Part shown: positions 9,058 to 15,223 of the stretch, piece by piece
How positions within the stretch are numbered: the first letter of the stretch is position 1
Layout: each line of letters starts with the position of its first letter
From: Candidatus Heimdallarchaeota archaeon
GTDB lineage: Archaea; Asgardarchaeota; Heimdallarchaeia; JABLTI01
Length of the DNA: 17,786 nucleotides
Reading direction: 5' to 3'
NCBI GenBank assembly: GCA_030614005.1
Contig: JAUWKS010000067.1
Coordinates: forward strand, 1 to 17,786
Notes under the pieces: generated by a model
The model's input: only the letters and a program-made list of their open reading frames with translations
What the model was told of the DNA's origin: nothing
The model's database searches: none
Position numbers and translations under genes: made by a program

Positions 9058-9540
9058 TTGTCTGATGTAGAAAAAGTAATCCCAGAAGAATTAGACGCTG
9101 TAACAGAGAGACTTGTCTATAAAATAACTGAAGGATTACAACGACTAAACAGTATCGGTACAGTTCAATTTATTCAAATCGATTTACCTCCAATTCCAGA
9201 TAGGATCAAAGATATTTTAGCAATAAACTTCAATTCTCCCTTAGATTATGGTTTGTATATTAATCAAACAATTGTATTAGAACAAATGGATACGGGTGAC
9301 TCCTTTATGAGAGCATTGAACTCCATTAGAAAGCTCTTCACTGTGGTCGATACAATTTCTATTGAGGAAATACAAGCAGTAGTAAATATTGACTACAAAG
9401 GCGAACCTATGGATATCATTGTTACTTATGATCCTGAGGAGCACGACATCAGTCTTGTGTCTGTAACTCAACATGGAGAATTCTTTAGAATTTTAGAATA
9501 TGTTAGATTCTTCTGGTTAAAATCAAGACCAAGAATTTAG
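9058..9540 (+). CDS. Hypothetical protein (160 aa, acidic)
   Basis: Clean ORF with GGAG about 10 nt upstream of TTG and a T-rich tract after the stop. No family recognised. Confidence 0.75.
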   Translation: MSDVEKVIPEELDAVTERLVYKITEGLQRLNSIGTVQFIQIDLPPIPDRIKDILAINFNSPLDYGLYINQTIVLEQMDTGDSFMRALNSIRKLFTVVDTISIEEIQAVVNIDYKGEPMDIIVTYDPEEHDISLVSVTQHGEFFRILEYVRFFWLKSRPRI

Positions 9541-9663: not shown

Positions 9664-11010
9664 TTGGCAGATAAATTTAGTACGTCTCAGAAGCAAGATT
9701 TCACTATTAATCTATCTGAGGTGATTCCTTATACTATTGAGTTTTCCAAAGATGCTAAGGAAATTGTCTTAACAAAAGGAGTAATCACAGGAGAAATTTC
9801 TTTAGATAGCATAGCACTAGAACTTGCTCAAAGATTTGATATAGCTTATGAAGAGATTTTTTTTACAAAAAATGATAATAACGACTTCTTAATTAATTTA
9901 GTTTCTGAAAATTTTATTGATACATCAGTTGCAGAAAGTATCATTCTCGAGATGATTGCAAATGAATTACCGTATTCGTTAAAAAGTGCAGACACTCACA
10001 AAGTATTTACCTATATTACTGAAAACCTATTTGGAATACCATTAATTGGGTCAATGTATTTTGGGGTTATTGATCGTGGAACCAACCTCTTACAAATAAG
10101 AAGTTTAACTGGTTGCCCTCTAAATTGCCCGTTTTGTTCAGTTGATGAAGGTCCTGCAACTAAAACAAAACATAGAGATTTCATTGTTGATTCAGATTAT
10201 TTAGTAGATACTTACAATCATGTTGTAAAAGAAAAAGAATTGAAAAAAGCAGAAGCTCACTTGGATGGACAAGCAGAACCGATGGCATATTCTTATCTTG
10301 TTGATTTAGTGCAGGGGTTAGCTAATAATCCCAATACAGCGATAATATCGGCTCAAACAAATGGATGGTATTTGACTGAAAAGCTTATTGATGAATTAGC
10401 TGATGCAGGTCTTTCAAGGATAAATCTTTCAATAAATTCAATGGAATTATCAAATGCTAAGCGATTATCTGGGAGAGGAGATTACCCTTTGCAGAAAATA
10501 TTGACTATGGCAGAATATATTGCAAACTCAAAAATTTCTTTATTACTTGCACCGCTTTGGATACCGGGAATAAATGATTCAGCTATCGAAGAGATAGTTA
10601 AATTCTCGAAAAAAATTAACAATGAGGAAAAGCGTTTCCCTACTTTAGGAATTCAAAATTATCTGATTCATCATCAAGGGAGAAATATGAAAGGGGTCAA
10701 GTCTAAAACCTTCAAAACGTTCAATGAACAATTGAGAGAATTTGAGAGAAAATACGATGTGTCAAACCTGGTTTTAAAACAATCAATGTTTGAATCCTAT
10801 AAAACAAAGATGCTGCCAAATCCTCTAAAAGTGGGGGAAATAATTTCAAGCAGAGTTATTCTTCATGGTAGATTAAATGATGAAATCTTCACTGTAGCAA
10901 AGAATAGAATTATACATGTTACAGGAGCAGAAGGCATATCCATTGGTACAAAATTTAAAGCACGAATTATCAGAAATAGACACAATATCTTTTTTGCGAA
11001 AAAAGTATAA
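9664..11010 (+). CDS. Radical SAM protein with C-terminal TRAM-like domain (archaeal COG2100-like)
   Basis: CxxxCxxC 'CPLNCPFC' (10114-10137) within 'GIPLIG..FG.IDRGTN..Q.R..TGC...C.FCSVDEGP'; 'AHLDGQAEP'; beta-rich C-terminus 'VGEIISSRV...IIRNRHNIFFA'. Confidence 0.88.
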   Translation: MADKFSTSQKQDFTINLSEVIPYTIEFSKDAKEIVLTKGVITGEISLDSIALELAQRFDIAYEEIFFTKNDNNDFLINLVSENFIDTSVAESIILEMIANELPYSLKSADTHKVFTYITENLFGIPLIGSMYFGVIDRGTNLLQIRSLTGCPLNCPFCSVDEGPATKTKHRDFIVDSDYLVDTYNHVVKEKELKKAEAHLDGQAEPMAYSYLVDLVQGLANNPNTAIISAQTNGWYLTEKLIDELADAGLSRINLSINSMELSNAKRLSGRGDYPLQKILTMAEYIANSKISLLLAPLWIPGINDSAIEEIVKFSKKINNEEKRFPTLGIQNYLIHHQGRNMKGVKSKTFKTFNEQLREFERKYDVSNLVLKQSMFESYKTKMLPNPLKVGEIISSRVILHGRLNDEIFTVAKNRIIHVTGAEGISIGTKFKARIIRNRHNIFFAKKV

Positions 11011-11027
11011 TCAGTATTACTTACCAA

Positions 11028-12134
11028 TCAACTTACAGGAAAGCGTAATAGGGCAACTTTTCCACCGAATTTTTCAACTTGTTTACCTGACGCGTGGTGT
11101 TCACTCATAATAACGATTTTTCCGCCAGATTTTTGAACGTCTTGCAGGAATCGATCGAGTTTCTTCCTTTTCTCTCGATCGCGCAAACGTAACTGATTAT
11201 CAACAAGTAACAAAGTTTCTACCGCACCAAATTCAATTGCCTTAACAATCGCCTCGTGTCCATAAGCGACAGTACCAGTATTTTTACCTAACCTTGTCAA
11301 AACTTCTTCAAGATATACAGCATCAGAACTTGCTTGCTCTTCTTCAATAATCCGACCTAGAATGTTTTTACTAATAATTTCGCCAATAGCACTTGGCCCT
11401 CCACTACTCGCTGTTTCAATTATTATTTTATCTAAAGGAATCGTTGTAATGTTCTTCTTCTCTTTTAAATAACGATAATAATTATCTTTTGTGAATCCAG
11501 GCCCAGCAAGAACCATTGCAGTAGCATCTGGAACTTTTGTGGAAAAAGCTTCTTCAATTGCAAATGTTACTGAAGAATAGAATTTTGCTATTTTCTCGGC
11601 ACGTATTTTTTCTTTGCTCCCCGATTTCTTTGGTATTCGTTCTTTAATATTAACAAGGATAGAACTTGAAAAAGCGCCTATAGCCGCAAGAGTAGCTTCA
11701 CTGTCATCTATAGCAACAATAAGTACTTTAGCACTTGAGGATTTTTTCACAGCAGCCTCTAATCGATCCTTATCGATTTTAGACCAAATTTCTTTTCCAA
11801 TTGTAAGTAATGTTCCTGTTTCTACATTGATTGTATGATAAGTTCCATAGGATATCAAATCCTCAGGACCCTCAGTTATTGTTCCTTTTATTCGTAAGCG
11901 ATTAGCAAATTCGTGGAATTTAACTTCTTCAACTTCTAGAGTCAGAATCATAGAAACACGGTCGCCTTTATCAGCTCTCCCATCTTCTGTTTCACCCATA
12001 CGAATCCTACGATAGGTTCGCGCCTTTACTTTATCGAGTGGTAGAATGAGATTATAGAGAACATATAAATCATCAACGGTTTCAGGTACAACTGAAACAG
12101 AACCAAATTGATATTTTCGTGATTTAATGTTCAA
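11028..12134 (-). CDS. pelA: Pelota/Dom34 ribosome rescue factor
   Basis: 'PETVDDLYVLYNLI', 'RLRIKGTI..GP', 'G.YHTI', 'LAGPGFTK' and 'GAVETLL', ending 'G..ALLRF'. GGTGA SD at 12146-12142 before TTG. Confidence 0.95.
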   Translation of the reverse strand: MNIKSRKYQFGSVSVVPETVDDLYVLYNLILPLDKVKARTYRRIRMGETEDGRADKGDRVSMILTLEVEEVKFHEFANRLRIKGTITEGPEDLISYGTYHTINVETGTLLTIGKEIWSKIDKDRLEAAVKKSSSAKVLIVAIDDSEATLAAIGAFSSSILVNIKERIPKKSGSKEKIRAEKIAKFYSSVTFAIEEAFSTKVPDATAMVLAGPGFTKDNYYRYLKEKKNITTIPLDKIIIETASSGGPSAIGEIISKNILGRIIEEEQASSDAVYLEEVLTRLGKNTGTVAYGHEAIVKAIEFGAVETLLLVDNQLRLRDREKRKKLDRFLQDVQKSGGKIVIMSEHHASGKQVEKFGGKVALLRFPVS

Positions 12135-12232: not shown

Positions 12233-12616
12233 TTAGAAGTTTTCTAAAATGTCTTCAACTCTTCCAGCAAAGTCCTTCATTAAACGATATCTTAATGTGG
12301 ATCTGCTAGTTTCTTCTTTAATCATTATTACTATTGAATTATTGCTCTCCGATCTAAAAACAAGAAAGAAACCGTCCTTTCCTTCCAACATAACTCCTAT
12401 AGGATCACCAATGCCGTAATGATTTGTTGTCATTTTTACCAGCGATAAAAATTCTCTCACATAAGAACTTGTAAACTCAGTATCAACTTCTTGAAAAGAC
12501 CATTTTAGCACAAGAAGTCCAGAAGATTCAATAACGATAACAGATTTGACTCCTGGATTAAGTGCGTGTAAAACATTGCATTCTTTTTCAAATCGTACAT
12601 CAACTGATTGGCTCAA
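12233..12616 (-). CDS. Roadblock/LC7 (MglB-like) domain protein
   Basis: Pattern helix - 'GVKSVIVIESSGLLV' - long helix - 'VMLEGKDGFFLVF...SIVIMIK' - helix 'MKDFAGRVEDIL' fits the Roadblock topology. GAGG SD 8 nt before TTG. Confidence 0.7.
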   Translation of the reverse strand: MSQSVDVRFEKECNVLHALNPGVKSVIVIESSGLLVLKWSFQEVDTEFTSSYVREFLSLVKMTTNHYGIGDPIGVMLEGKDGFFLVFRSESNNSIVIMIKEETSRSTLRYRLMKDFAGRVEDILENF

Positions 12617-12767: not shown

Positions 12768-12807
12768 GAAAGAAAAATAAGTAAAAAATGAAATACTCAT
12801 CGAGTAT
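12768..12807 (-). terminator. Hairpin plus T-tract downstream of the small Cys-rich gene
   Basis: Inverted repeat ATACTC-atc-GAGTAT (12793-12807), followed on the minus strand by TTCATTTTTTACTTATTTTTCTTTC. Confidence 0.45.
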
Positions 12808-12864
12808 CAGAATTCATATGGACCAATTACCCCCCCAACACTAAAATGAAATTGGGTGGTGTTA

Positions 12865-13032
12865 TTATCCACATCCAGAGCAACTTGAACAACCACTACT
12901 ACACATAGACATACTTTTAACATATTCTTCGTAGCATTCATGGTGAACAACGATGGTTTTGTTGTCAGTAGTATACACTTCTAACGATTTTTGATCTCCA
13001 TTTATTTCTTTATTACAAAGTATACAAGCCAT
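12865..13032 (-). CDS. Small Cys-rich protein (55 aa), putative Zn-finger plus a C-terminal CxxxCxxCxxC metal/Fe-S motif; not in ORF track
   Basis: Hand translation: MACILCNKEINGDQKSLEVYTTDNKTIVVHHECYEEYVKSMSMCSSGCSSCSGCG*. GTGA 5 nt before ATG, TTTAAATA at 13087-13080, and a hairpin plus T-tract downstream. Confidence 0.8.
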   Translation of the reverse strand: MACILCNKEINGDQKSLEVYTTDNKTIVVHHECYEEYVKSMSMCSSGCSSCSGCG

Positions 13033-13077
13033 AATAATCACTGAATTAACTGACTGATAGGACAGACTAAAACACTT

Positions 13078-13091
13078 CTTATTTAAAAATT
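13078..13091. promoter_or_regulatory. TATA-like element between the two divergent small ORFs
   Basis: CTTATTTAAAAATT reads as a TATA box on both strands, about 45-50 nt from ATG 13032 (minus) and from ATG 13132 (plus). Confidence 0.35.
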
Positions 13092-13131
13092 AAGGTAAAA
13101 CTCTCCAAAAACTAAACAAAAGGAGCTAAAC

Positions 13132-13275
13132 ATGTTCAGCAAATTGCAGAAAGTAAATAAAATTAGTTCTTGGTTGATATCAGGGATTGGTGATACCAAC
13201 CAAGCTAACTGTCCCCTAATTATAATTTGTTGGGTTCTTTTCCCGAGAGATTCGACGGTTGATTTTGAGGATTAG
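13132..13275 (+). CDS. Possible small ORF (47 aa), unknown
   Basis: AGGAG at 13121-13125, 6 nt before ATG. Translation MFSKLQKVNKISSWLISGIGDTNQANCPLIIICWVLFPRDSTVDFED*. No homology recognised. Confidence 0.3.
   Translation: MFSKLQKVNKISSWLISGIGDTNQANCPLIIICWVLFPRDSTVDFED
13169..13204. repeat. Inverted repeat, 14-bp arms with 8-nt spacer
   Basis: CTTGGTTGATATCA-gggattgg-TGATACCAACCAAG. One mismatch, which is a G.U pair if read on the minus strand. Confidence 0.85.
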
Positions 13276-13555
13276 AAAGATAACCATTCCAAGTACTGTG
13301 AACTAAAGATACATATCAATAGAATAATAGAATTACTAAAGAAAGAGTTGTTTACAAGAAAAACATTTTTAGACCTTCTTTTTGAATTTTAAGAACGTAA
13401 ATGCCTTGTTTTATTTTATTCGATATAAGGAAAATGGTTAAAAATAACAATATCGATTGTTTTATAGCATAAAGATGAAAAACTGTTATTCCGTTTTTTT
13501 GCGGAAAAATAGTCTTTTATTTACTAAAAATGCTATATTTGGGTTGAAAGTAGAG

Positions 13556-15223
13556 ATGGCAGCACAAGAATTGACTCAACTTGAGGAAAAACTCTTTGAA
13601 AAGATTAAAGCTATAGAAAAAATGGGCATTTCTGCACGTTATTTGCCTAATAGAGTTGAGCCAGGAGTTGCATATCAATTACATCAAGAAAATAGATGGA
13701 GCAAATTTTCGGGAGAAACATTATTTATTAACCAACAAATCCTTGCTGATCCAATATTAGAACCTTTAATTTTTTGGCGAGAAGCCTTCATGTTTTTAGC
13801 TCCAAAAGATCTGAGAGACACATGGTGGGTTCGCGTTTTAGCAAATACTTTTCCTTTCAGTATTCGACAAACAAATGAAAATTATGAAAAATGGTCAGAA
13901 ATATGGGGAAAAGTAATTGACCCAAAACTCCAAGAAGTTTCGGATTATAAGGAACTAGCATTTTCAGTTGGCTCAAAAGGCATTATTGAGATATTTAGAT
14001 TATGCTTGCATCAAACATTCTCATTGCAAAAAGAGCTGAGAAATGAAAAAATAAAATTCTCTCAGATAGAACTAAACTTGAGGGAGTTTACATTAATTGT
14101 TTCAAAAGTTCGCGATGTATCTGTCGGAATAAATGAAAGTGCAGTAGATATTATGAAAGTAGCTCTGATAAAGCAAACGTTGAAACCTAAAGAGTTGGAA
14201 AAATATACTGATAAAAGCAAAAGTACAATTAGTAAAATAACAAAAAAACTACAAGATATGCAAGTTTTGAATACCAGAACGCAGGTTAACATTCATCGAC
14301 TTAATTTGGGAAACTATTACATGCTATTAAATTGCACACGTAGTCAATATGAAAAACTGAAAAATAATTTTCCAAAACATCCATTTCTTTTTACTTACAG
14401 AGTCCATTGTTTAACAACTTGCACGATTACACTACAATTTGTAGGACCTAGAACAGAAGAATTTTATCTACATTTAGAAAAATACTGTAAATGGTTGAAG
14501 GGATCTAATCAAACAATCGAATATCAATTATTTGAGCTTTTTAATCCCTTCAGAAGTTATTCTTTCAAACACTTCGATACAAAATCAAAGATTCAAAACC
14601 TCAATATTAACGATATAGCAATTAATTATAATTTACTAAGAGAGATACCACAAGAAAAGCGAAAAGGAACAAAATCAGAGCCAGAAAATATCATTGTTAC
14701 TATCCCTCAATTTTCGAAAATTTGTAACAAATTAGATCAAATAGATATTGAAATTATTAATCAGATTTTAATTGGAAACTTTACTAGACGAGGTATTCAA
14801 AAAATAGTGAAGAAAGATATGAATGATATTGTTAAACGTCTACGATATTTCAAAGAGGAGGAAGTACTAGCAGAACATGTTTATGTTAAATTACCCAATA
14901 ATTCAGAACAAGTCATGCTCTTCATCGAAGAAACTAAAAATGAACCCTCACTAAAAGAGAGAATGAAACTTTTATGTTATTATTTACCAGATGCTTTCTT
15001 TTCAGAAGTGAAGGGAACGTTCGACGGCATAATGCTACTTTTATCACTTTCGTATTCGAATGTTTTACAATTTGTAGACTTCATTAATTTCTTTTTACCC
15101 TCTTCAATCAATATACAAATTATTGTAGGAAGGGCTAAAGAGCAAAAAGAGTTTAGAAAATTACCTGTGAATCGCTGGACTGGTTCTGAATGGTTATTTT
15201 ATGAAGAAGATTTTGAGATGTGA
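13556..15223 (+). CDS. Large transcriptional regulator-like protein: N-terminal unknown domain plus two Lrp/AsnC-like wHTH modules
   Basis: HTH1 from about 14129 'INESAVDIMK...ELEKYTDKSKSTISKITKKLQDMQVL...VNIHRLNL'. HTH2 from about 14732 'LDQIDIEIINQI...IVKRLRYFKEEEVL'. Each is followed by an alpha/beta segment. Likely start ATG 13556 (MAAQEL); the track start is TTG 13457. Confidence 0.65.
   Translation: MAAQELTQLEEKLFEKIKAIEKMGISARYLPNRVEPGVAYQLHQENRWSKFSGETLFINQQILADPILEPLIFWREAFMFLAPKDLRDTWWVRVLANTFPFSIRQTNENYEKWSEIWGKVIDPKLQEVSDYKELAFSVGSKGIIEIFRLCLHQTFSLQKELRNEKIKFSQIELNLREFTLIVSKVRDVSVGINESAVDIMKVALIKQTLKPKELEKYTDKSKSTISKITKKLQDMQVLNTRTQVNIHRLNLGNYYMLLNCTRSQYEKLKNNFPKHPFLFTYRVHCLTTCTITLQFVGPRTEEFYLHLEKYCKWLKGSNQTIEYQLFELFNPFRSYSFKHFDTKSKIQNLNINDIAINYNLLREIPQEKRKGTKSEPENIIVTIPQFSKICNKLDQIDIEIINQILIGNFTRRGIQKIVKKDMNDIVKRLRYFKEEEVLAEHVYVKLPNNSEQVMLFIEETKNEPSLKERMKLLCYYLPDAFFSEVKGTFDGIMLLLSLSYSNVLQFVDFINFFLPSSINIQIIVGRAKEQKEFRKLPVNRWTGSEWLFYEEDFEM

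Follow-up and report, generated by a model that had tools for sequence, protein, structure and literature searches.

A small cysteine-rich protein of Heimdall archaea with sequence likeness to RING-CH fingers

Gene content and signals at the locus

The window, by which we mean the whole stretch of DNA analysed, is an entire 17.8-kb contig (C70) of a 3.6-Mb genome that is 90% complete (G000), and its closest protein relatives carry the label Candidatus Heimdallarchaeota. DNA of this stretch was found in 13 sequencing runs, all of them marine sediment and cold seep metagenomes, and the runs listed include none of RNA. The genes for SRP54, an Rpb4-like protein, DUF655, isocitrate/isopropylmalate dehydrogenase, ThyX, an ATC-hydrolase-like protein and inorganic pyrophosphatase give the window a housekeeping character, and a search of its full length against Rfam returned no match. 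The features that matter here are listed in Table 1.

Table 1. Positions of the small gene, its parts and signals, and of the neighbouring genes in the window.
Feature	Positions	Strand	Basis
Coding sequence of the 55-aa protein, including the TAA stop	12865..13032	-	Translation; orthologues; dN/dS 0.04-0.2
Residues 1-43, predicted C2HC treble-clef finger, RING-CH-like (C3, C6, H30, C33; hydrophobic L5; Y37)	12904..13032	-	AlphaFold2; invariant columns; K3 match and sub-threshold RINGv matches
Residues 44-55, Gly/Ser-spaced four-Cys tail (C44, C48, C51, C54)	12868..12903	-	Cys counts; pLDDT below 50
SD-like GTGATT, 6-11 nt 5' of the ATG	13036..13041	-	Invariant in 10 aligned orthologous loci
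Conserved A/T block with TATA-like box, putative archaeal promoter	13079..13095	-	Block CTTTAATTT(A/T)TAAA kept in the genus
T-tracts ~77-92 nt past the stop, putative archaeal terminator	12773..12788	-	T-rich position kept in orthologous loci
Pelota	11028-12134	-	
Roadblock/LC7 protein	12233-12616	-	
588-aa protein without Pfam domain	13457-15223	+	
448-aa radical SAM protein	9664-11010	+	
Conserved 160-aa protein without Pfam match	9058-9540	+	

The small gene is read from the minus strand. Its open reading frame (12868-13032), closed by a TAA at 12865-12867, translates letter for letter into the peptide that the preliminary description of this DNA had quoted as the product of a gene below the ORF cut-off, and the constraint on its orthologues agrees with that proposal. 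The motifs C3xxC6, H30xxC33 and C44x3C48x2C51x2C54 pointed out at the time are all present in the peptide. Most of the proposed signals around the gene also stood up to comparison between genomes. The SD-like GTGATT, which includes the GTGA first noted and is complementary to the 3' end of 16S rRNA, does not vary between the aligned loci. The TATA-like box ~48 nt upstream (TTTTTAAATA, 13080-13089) lies inside the conserved block CTTTAATTTATAAA; in the aligned orthologous loci the A/T block that holds it, ~45-60 nt upstream, is kept across the genus and probably serves as the promoter. Downstream, a hairpin followed by a T-tract had been proposed, and here only one half persisted: the T-tracts are conserved, but the hairpin after the stop (~12831-12861) is weak and is not kept between species in the aligned orthologous loci.

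The intergenic region between the small gene and its divergent neighbour (13033-13555) is unusually long (~520 nt) and AT-rich; only its promoter-proximal part is conserved, and it gave no Rfam match. The divergent neighbour itself, the 588-aa protein, has its likely true start at the ATG at 13556. It had been taken for a tandem-Lrp regulator, which we do not recover: its only matches are weak ones to winged-helix domains around residues 195-280, with E 0.03-0.2. It evolves fast, with 33-42% identity within the family of genomes to which the window belongs (f1) versus 66-98% for its neighbours. On the other side of Pelota, the 448-aa radical SAM protein corresponds to no NCBIfam equivalog (its best match, MoaA-like, reaches 55 bits against a cut-off of 284), and its gene and that of the 160-aa protein are syntenic throughout f1.

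Conservation and distribution of the small gene

Six-frame searches of Asgard genomes returned full-length orthologues of the small protein in all ten genomes of the window's genus (74-93% identity) and in the single genome of the sister genus (60%), most of the Cys/His pattern being kept. Pairwise Nei-Gojobori dN/dS values between the orthologues are low, 0.04-0.2, with dS at or near saturation. Across f1 the small protein changes at about the rate of Pelota and far more slowly than the 588-aa neighbour; the respective identities to the sister genus are 60%, 66% and 33%. Because orthologues are present in the genus and its sister genus, dN/dS lies at 0.04-0.2 and the SD-like and TATA-like motifs are conserved, we conclude that the gene for the 55-aa protein is real and under constraint. 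Genes that fall under the usual ORF cut-offs in these genomes can therefore be strongly conserved.

Beyond the genus, a profile of the family run against 1.84 billion representative proteins gave 18 matches at E <= 1e-3, of which ~16 were small proteins of 54-81 residues. The small-protein family thus amounts to ~16 clusters and is present in 3 of the ~33 families of the phylum. A survey of 399 genomes of the phylum located these three families within one class, namely f1, f4 and f5. At E <= 1e-3, 10 of the 11 genomes of f1 were positive, the eleventh (G006) giving a weak match to a longer paralogue only; the small gene was also found in 9 of 12 genomes of f4 and in the only genome of f5. It did not turn up in f2 (0/30) or f3 (0/22), nor, effectively, elsewhere in the phylum. 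No fused or longer forms of the domain appeared among 8000 candidates, which is weak evidence against their existence. Among Asgard archaea, then, the 55-residue protein was found only in the Heimdall group, and only in some of its lineages.

Ligand pattern, predicted fold and relatives of the protein

The main family alignment comprises 23 diverse members, and residues were counted in 31 distinct sequences. The alignment has six columns without variation, C3, C6, H30, C33, C48 and C51, and Y37 comes next with a conservation of 90% or more; C3 and C6 do not vary among the 31 sequences either. Among the 31 sequences, the position of H30 holds a His in 30; the orthologue from G003 (L009:1501-1662) has a Tyr by a single-base difference, which may reflect true variation or a fault in the assembly. 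All 31 sequences have L, I or M ahead of the second Cys, and four positions past C33 there is a Y in 29 of them and an L in the other two. A block (M/L)E(V/I)P(L)TTG..V.VH..C is conserved ahead of the helix, which is followed by a polar linker of 8-12 residues and then by the Cys/Ser/Gly tail at the end of the protein. Members from outside f1 additionally carry an N-terminal extension of variable length.

The tail combines a fixed number of cysteines with a free arrangement. Exactly four are found in 30 of the 31 sequences, and three with a terminal His in the remaining one; every tail contains a CxxC, and C48xxC51 is the part that is invariant in the family. The spacing takes the form C-x2-3-C-x2-C-x2-C-G in the window's genus, and C-x2-C-x5-CC(G) or C-x2-C-x3-C-x2-C...H elsewhere. 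The C-x3-C-x2-C-x2-C that the preliminary description had read from the window's protein is accordingly not conserved: C-x2-C-x2-C-x2-C predominates in the genus, and lineages outside it differ again, for example with C-x2-C-x5-CC. The same description had suggested that the tail could bind a second metal, and in their constant number the terminal cysteines do behave like a second four-ligand site despite the variable spacing. A constant number of ligands with free spacing would be expected of a single four-coordinate metal site contributed by a flexible loop, and sits badly with a ferredoxin motif, a metallothionein or the core of a peptide natural product. In the window's genus a conserved MxM precedes the first tail Cys, and tails in other lineages end in GCC or GCCG.

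The same genus also encodes a family of paralogues of 114-120 aa (L089:1477-1818(-), on contig C123 of G000; also L032:3339-3698) with the pattern C-x2-C ... H-x2-C ... C-x2-C. Ligand pair 2 of the RING pattern described below is missing from them as well, and an extra Cys/His-rich module has been added. In G000 the gene of this paralogue is divergent from those of ribosomal proteins S12/S7.

AlphaFold2, run with the family alignment, modelled residues 1-43 at a pLDDT of ~88 and residues 46-55 at less than 50. The predicted finger consists of a zinc knuckle, a beta-hairpin (strands 16-20 and 26-30) and a helix (31-42). This is the treble clef of which the C2HC ligands had already been reminiscent, and a distant member was predicted with the same topology at lower confidence. 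The model of the window's protein contains no metals, and the tail is disordered both in it and in the model of the distant member; therefore nothing in them shows it folding back onto the finger.

Fold searches with this model should be read with care, as every score was under the tools' reliability mark and L24e/Rlp24, PHD and LIM fingers scored nearly as well as RING domains. Weak scores are expected for 40 residues. The top rows were E2-bound RING domains, with RNF165 (Z 4.8, rmsd 1.5 over 38 residues) and AO7 (Z 4.4, rmsd 1.5 over 45 residues) in front and APC11, EL5, HRD1, Slx1 and Doa10 also among the matches. PHD fingers and the L24e/Rlp24 ribosomal finger ranked next (rmsd 2.2-3.0); the N-terminal fingers of L24e/Rlp24 reached a Foldseek probability of 0.8-0.97, a TM of ~0.53 and a VIA Z of 3.5-4.2. 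The ESM Atlas was uninformative: the best match by features (0.87) was a Bathyarchaeota cluster that carries no name, and those by shape were likewise unnamed clusters, along with fragments of group II intron maturases. The NosL copper chaperone and a 'TRASH' cluster appeared as weak look-alikes in the structure and Atlas searches.

At the sequence level no curated Pfam or NCBIfam model reached threshold for the window's protein or for the other members tested, in keeping with the early impression that the family is not a recognised one. The broad family profile, searched against all PDB sequences, nevertheless had one significant match, the RING-CH domain of KSHV K3 (1vyx; E 5e-4, 23.3 bits). 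This likeness, which the preliminary description did not contain, is the only statistically significant link of the protein to a known family. With a narrower, genus-centred profile the same domain ranked first at E 0.094. The alignment to K3 covers both the first and the last CxxC and everything between them, and TGE, VH..CL and the aromatic position (Y/W) fall into register; T-G-E stands four to six residues past the C-x-C of K3, and it is Pro/Leu and Thr of the family that face those two Cys. In Pfam, members P0012 and P0013 match RINGv over its full profile (1-47 of 47) at 18.3 and 17.7 bits, below the gathering threshold of 21.6, and the window's own protein gave no RINGv match. Further weak Pfam matches were to zf-RING_2 (5 of 14 members, best E 0.0017), zf-RING-like, SLX1_C and PHD_2. 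The family profile also matches a LIM-repeat protein, and the C2HC half is therefore generic. A profile-profile comparison with the RING domain encoded by the adjacent DZR-RING gene of other lineages (see below) returned a probability of 6.8%. Canonical RINGv domains were not found in 26 related genomes at E <= 1e-5, in a search whose controls gave no match either.

Ligand by ligand, the comparison with RING-CH/RINGv (PF12906; C4HC3), the finger of KSHV K3/K5, MARCH ligases and Doa10, is as follows. Both kinds of protein begin with the C-x2-C of pair 1 (C3 and C6), have the H-x2-C of pair 3 followed four residues later by an aromatic or hydrophobic residue, and have the C-x2-C of pair 4 past the helix (C48xxC51), in the same order and with the same spacing. 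They also share TG..x.VH..CL, the aromatic residue four past the sixth ligand, the hydrophobic one before the second Cys and a length of ~50 residues. In contrast, the C-x-C of pair 2 (ligands 3 and 4), ~8-10 residues before the His, is lacking in every member, where Y/L/P, T and T occur instead; two extra Cys are present in the disordered tail; a transmembrane region and further domains are lacking; and no member reaches the Pfam cut-off.

Other fingers resemble the protein in part. The best superpositions (Z 4.4-4.8, rmsd 1.5) are with RING-H2 fingers, a group with the small stand-alone subunits Rbx1 and APC11 and the domains of RNF165, AO7 and EL5. The subunits are likewise small, bind only Zn and function purely through their partners, but RING-H2 fingers have eight or more ligands, pair 2 among them, and their sequence similarity to our protein is insignificant. 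The first finger of LIM domains (C-x2-C-x16-23-H-x2-C) is identical to site 1 in ligand types and spacing. LIM, however, runs on directly into C-x2-C-x2-C and a second full finger, and LIM structures did not score in the PDB profile searches.

Neighbourhoods and candidate roles

The surroundings of the small gene differ between lineages. All of f1 shares the gene order ThyX - 588-aa gene - small gene - Roadblock - Pelota - radical SAM. The suggestion that the small protein is controlled by, or partners, the product of the divergent gene finds no backing beyond this synteny, as the two genes are not paired in the remaining lineages with the small gene. In f4 and in metagenomic contigs related to it, another gene begins 13-107 nt past the small gene on the same strand; it encodes a 122-135-aa protein with an N-terminal double zinc ribbon (DZR, 65 bits) and a C-terminal RING finger (Prok-RING_1, 29.4 bits versus a cut-off of 29.1; zf-RING_2, 24.7-27.3 bits). 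We considered an obligate pairing of the two and rejected it: full-length DZR-RING genes occur without the small gene in f6 (3/3) and in G022, and the small gene occurs without DZR-RING in f1 and f5. A complex prediction for the small protein and the DZR-RING protein of another lineage scored 0.00, which speaks neither for nor against binding.

We tentatively favour the reading that the small gene encodes a degenerate, stand-alone zinc finger of the RING-CH type (a C4HC3 cross-brace) with two metal sites, the second rebuilt by the tail. C3, C6, H30 and C33 would form site 1 and represent RING ligand pairs 1 and 3. The CxC of pair 2 would have been replaced by non-ligands, YTT in the window's genus and PLTT elsewhere, with retention of the motif that comes after it, TG..x.VH..C(L)..(Y/W). 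C48xxC51 would be pair 4, the two further tail Cys could stand in for the lost pair, and the flexible Gly/Ser tail might in this way complete another four-ligand metal site by itself. Such a protein would have no catalytic domain and would most likely act as a small protein-binding module. If this is true, the family is a natural experiment in the rewiring of cross-brace zinc sites, in which three of four ligand pairs were kept and the fourth was rebuilt from a tail.

As to what would be bound, the E2 contacts of RING-E2 interfaces include the hydrophobic residue that precedes the second Cys and the aromatic one past the sixth ligand. L5 and Y37 would sit at these positions, and because of this, and because the genome has three E2-like genes, we favour the role of an adaptor or cofactor in the ubiquitin-type network of Asgard archaea. 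That the 55-aa protein binds metal, that its tail completes the second site, that it holds an E2 or another partner and, with these, its function, we infer from the ligand pattern and the likenesses set out above. The E2-like genes of G000 (C29:4705-5052, C1:25226-25483 and C94:2883-3146) are of the UQ_con type, and the genome also encodes many RING proteins. Phyletic comparison is uninformative, as E2 genes are present in all 82 genomes of the class versus only three families for the small gene, and no E2 gene is consistently adjacent to the small gene across lineages. If the reading holds, the protein is a small, easily expressed candidate for tests of E2 recognition in an archaeal system; if the link to RING fails, an ordinary lineage-specific small zinc-finger protein remains.

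Within the genus the best-scoring UQ_con gene is found on the far side of ThyX and pyrophosphatase, at a distance of 4-9 kb from the small gene (G010:C3:20153-20500, G007:C84:3485-3859, G003:C82:20927-21289, G005:C30:28227-28583 and G008:C217:3259-3621). In G000 it would fall just beyond the end of the contig. This proximity is possibly mere synteny.

Alternatively, though we consider it rather unlikely, the protein could be a carrier of metal or thiols, much as the preliminary description had proposed with its metal chaperone, i.e. a generic structural C2HC finger with an autonomous, flexible tetra-cysteine arm. The arm would bind a soft metal, for instance Cu(I), Zn or an Hg-like ion, and pass it on, or it could cycle between dithiol and disulfide and be re-reduced by a flavoprotein disulfide reductase. 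C-terminal vicinal Cys arms do occur in MerA and in high-Mr thioredoxin reductases, and the four thiols of the tail, conserved in number within a disordered Gly/Ser context and accompanied by GCC/GCCG endings and by MxM before the first Cys, would be compatible with such an arm. An exactly fixed ligand number suits a structural site equally well, however. Outside f1 a reductase of the required kind is at hand: a class-I flavoprotein disulfide reductase with a CxxxxC active site adjoins the small gene or DZR-RING in f4 and related contigs, once directly 3' of the small gene with a gap of 57 nt; one example is L030:6594-7961. It corresponds to no NCBIfam equivalog and scores similarly for LpdA, MerA and RclA. 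G000, however, has no orthologue of it, the best match being 34% identical and of bona fide dihydrolipoyl-dehydrogenase type. For a metal carrier, the weak resemblance to NosL and the 'TRASH' cluster might be cited, but there is no Pfam match to TRASH, YHS or HMA, and no metal transporter or resistance gene lies near the small gene in any context examined. The metallothionein-like protein proposed in the preliminary description does not fit: metallothioneins are Cys-rich throughout, form metal-thiolate clusters with many Cys and have few or no aromatic residues, whereas this protein has only four tail Cys, in a fixed number, and a folded N-terminal domain with Tyr and His.

Ribosomal surroundings raise two further readings, both of which we regard as improbable. 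In the first, the protein would be a ribosome-associated zinc finger of the L24e/Rlp24 type that acts with ribosome-rescue factors. L24e and Rlp24 are recurrent structural neighbours, and like the small protein they and TRASH domains, which are metal-handling modules in archaea, have a single N-terminal treble clef of ~40 residues, C-x2-C ... (C/H)-x2-3-C. In f1 the small gene lies 250 nt from Roadblock and ~730 nt from Pelota. In f4 the gene for NFACT, the homologue of Rqc2/NEMF, is 0.05-2 kb away in several arrangements, and in G090 it follows the small gene directly on the same strand, after a gap of 53 nt. Each of these associations occurs in only a single family of related genomes, however, and may reflect inherited gene order; in G000 and G032 NFACT is on another contig. 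The rmsd to L24e (2.2-3.0) is also worse than that to RING (1.5), and where TRASH/L24e fingers have C-x2-C-x19-22-C-x3-C, the small protein has H-x2-C with His as third ligand and no Pfam or NCBIfam match. There is no rRNA-binding extension, no metal-resistance gene context and no basic surface of the kind expected of an rRNA binder, the protein being acidic to neutral by inspection.

In the second of these readings, to which we likewise give little credence, the protein would be a working RING-CH component of an Asgard ribosome-associated quality control or ubiquitin-type pathway, i.e. a minimal finger for E2 recruitment whose second zinc site has been rewired, at work next to Pelota in the window's lineage and next to NFACT/Rqc2 and DZR-RING in others. 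Pelota in one family and NFACT with RING in another are suggestive of ribosome quality control; they represent two blocks of related genomes. Were it true, this would be the first prokaryotic relative of the MARCH/Doa10 RING-CH fingers, and it would hint that ribosome quality control of the RING-dependent kind is older than eukaryotes. In a Heimdallarchaeia family other than f1, small finger, DZR-RING, reductase and NFACT form a recurring four-gene cluster with shuffled orientations at L030:5971-10246 (G014), L075, L077, L080, L034 and L036, and a RING protein beside NFACT recalls the eukaryotic Listerin-NEMF pair.

An Fe-S cluster on the four tail Cys, which would make the protein a mini-ferredoxin or a redox sensor, is slightly less probable still. 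There are exactly four Cys, C-x2-C-x2-C runs of the kind used in cluster binding occur in the window's genus, and the organisms were sampled from cold seeps and anoxic marine sediment. The tail spacing differs widely between orthologues, however, which is unusual for a cluster site; one member has a terminal His in place of a Cys, neither Pro nor hydrophobic shielding is found near the motif, and no Fe-S family matches. The earlier comparison with ferredoxin rested on a spacing that is not conserved: among orthologues and lineages the tails vary away from C-x2-C-x2-C-x3-C(P), and there is no Fer4 match. Finally, it is very improbable that the gene encodes the precursor of a modified ribosomal peptide of the azole or lanthionine type, with a leader and a Cys/Ser/Gly core, as might be thought from the almost purely Cys, Ser and Gly tail, a weak NCBIfam match to lantibiotic mutacin (16.9 bits versus a cut-off of 115) and a radical SAM gene 1.9 kb away: what would be the leader is predicted to fold as a zinc finger and conserves its ligands, the gene occurs once, among housekeeping genes, the radical SAM link is confined to f1, no YcaO was found in the 90%-complete G000, and no maturase, protease or exporter adjoins the small gene in any lineage examined, ~20 neighbourhoods being free of maturases of the YcaO or LanM/LanB kind and of radical SAM enzymes with a peptide-recognition domain.

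Returning to the degenerate RING-CH finger, its interest lies in where it occurs. Heimdallarchaeia count among the nearest relatives that eukaryotes have in the archaea, and reconstructions of the origin of eukaryotic protein regulation draw on their ubiquitin-type machinery. To our knowledge, RING-CH fingers are regarded as a feature of eukaryotes and their viruses. In the literature searched we found nothing that links RING-CH to Asgard archaea, and nothing relevant on small zinc fingers of Asgard archaea or on NFACT with RING. RING-type ligase components are already known from Asgard archaea; a RING-CH-like, stand-alone finger that lacks pair 2 and may be completed by its tail is undescribed in that literature. 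Among the RING proteins of G000, two tandem genes on contig C24 (L082:1477-2710) encode membrane-anchored proteins of ~185 aa with a C-terminal RING finger, CxxC..CPxC..FHxxH..W..CPxC, the same subtype as in the DZR-RING proteins.
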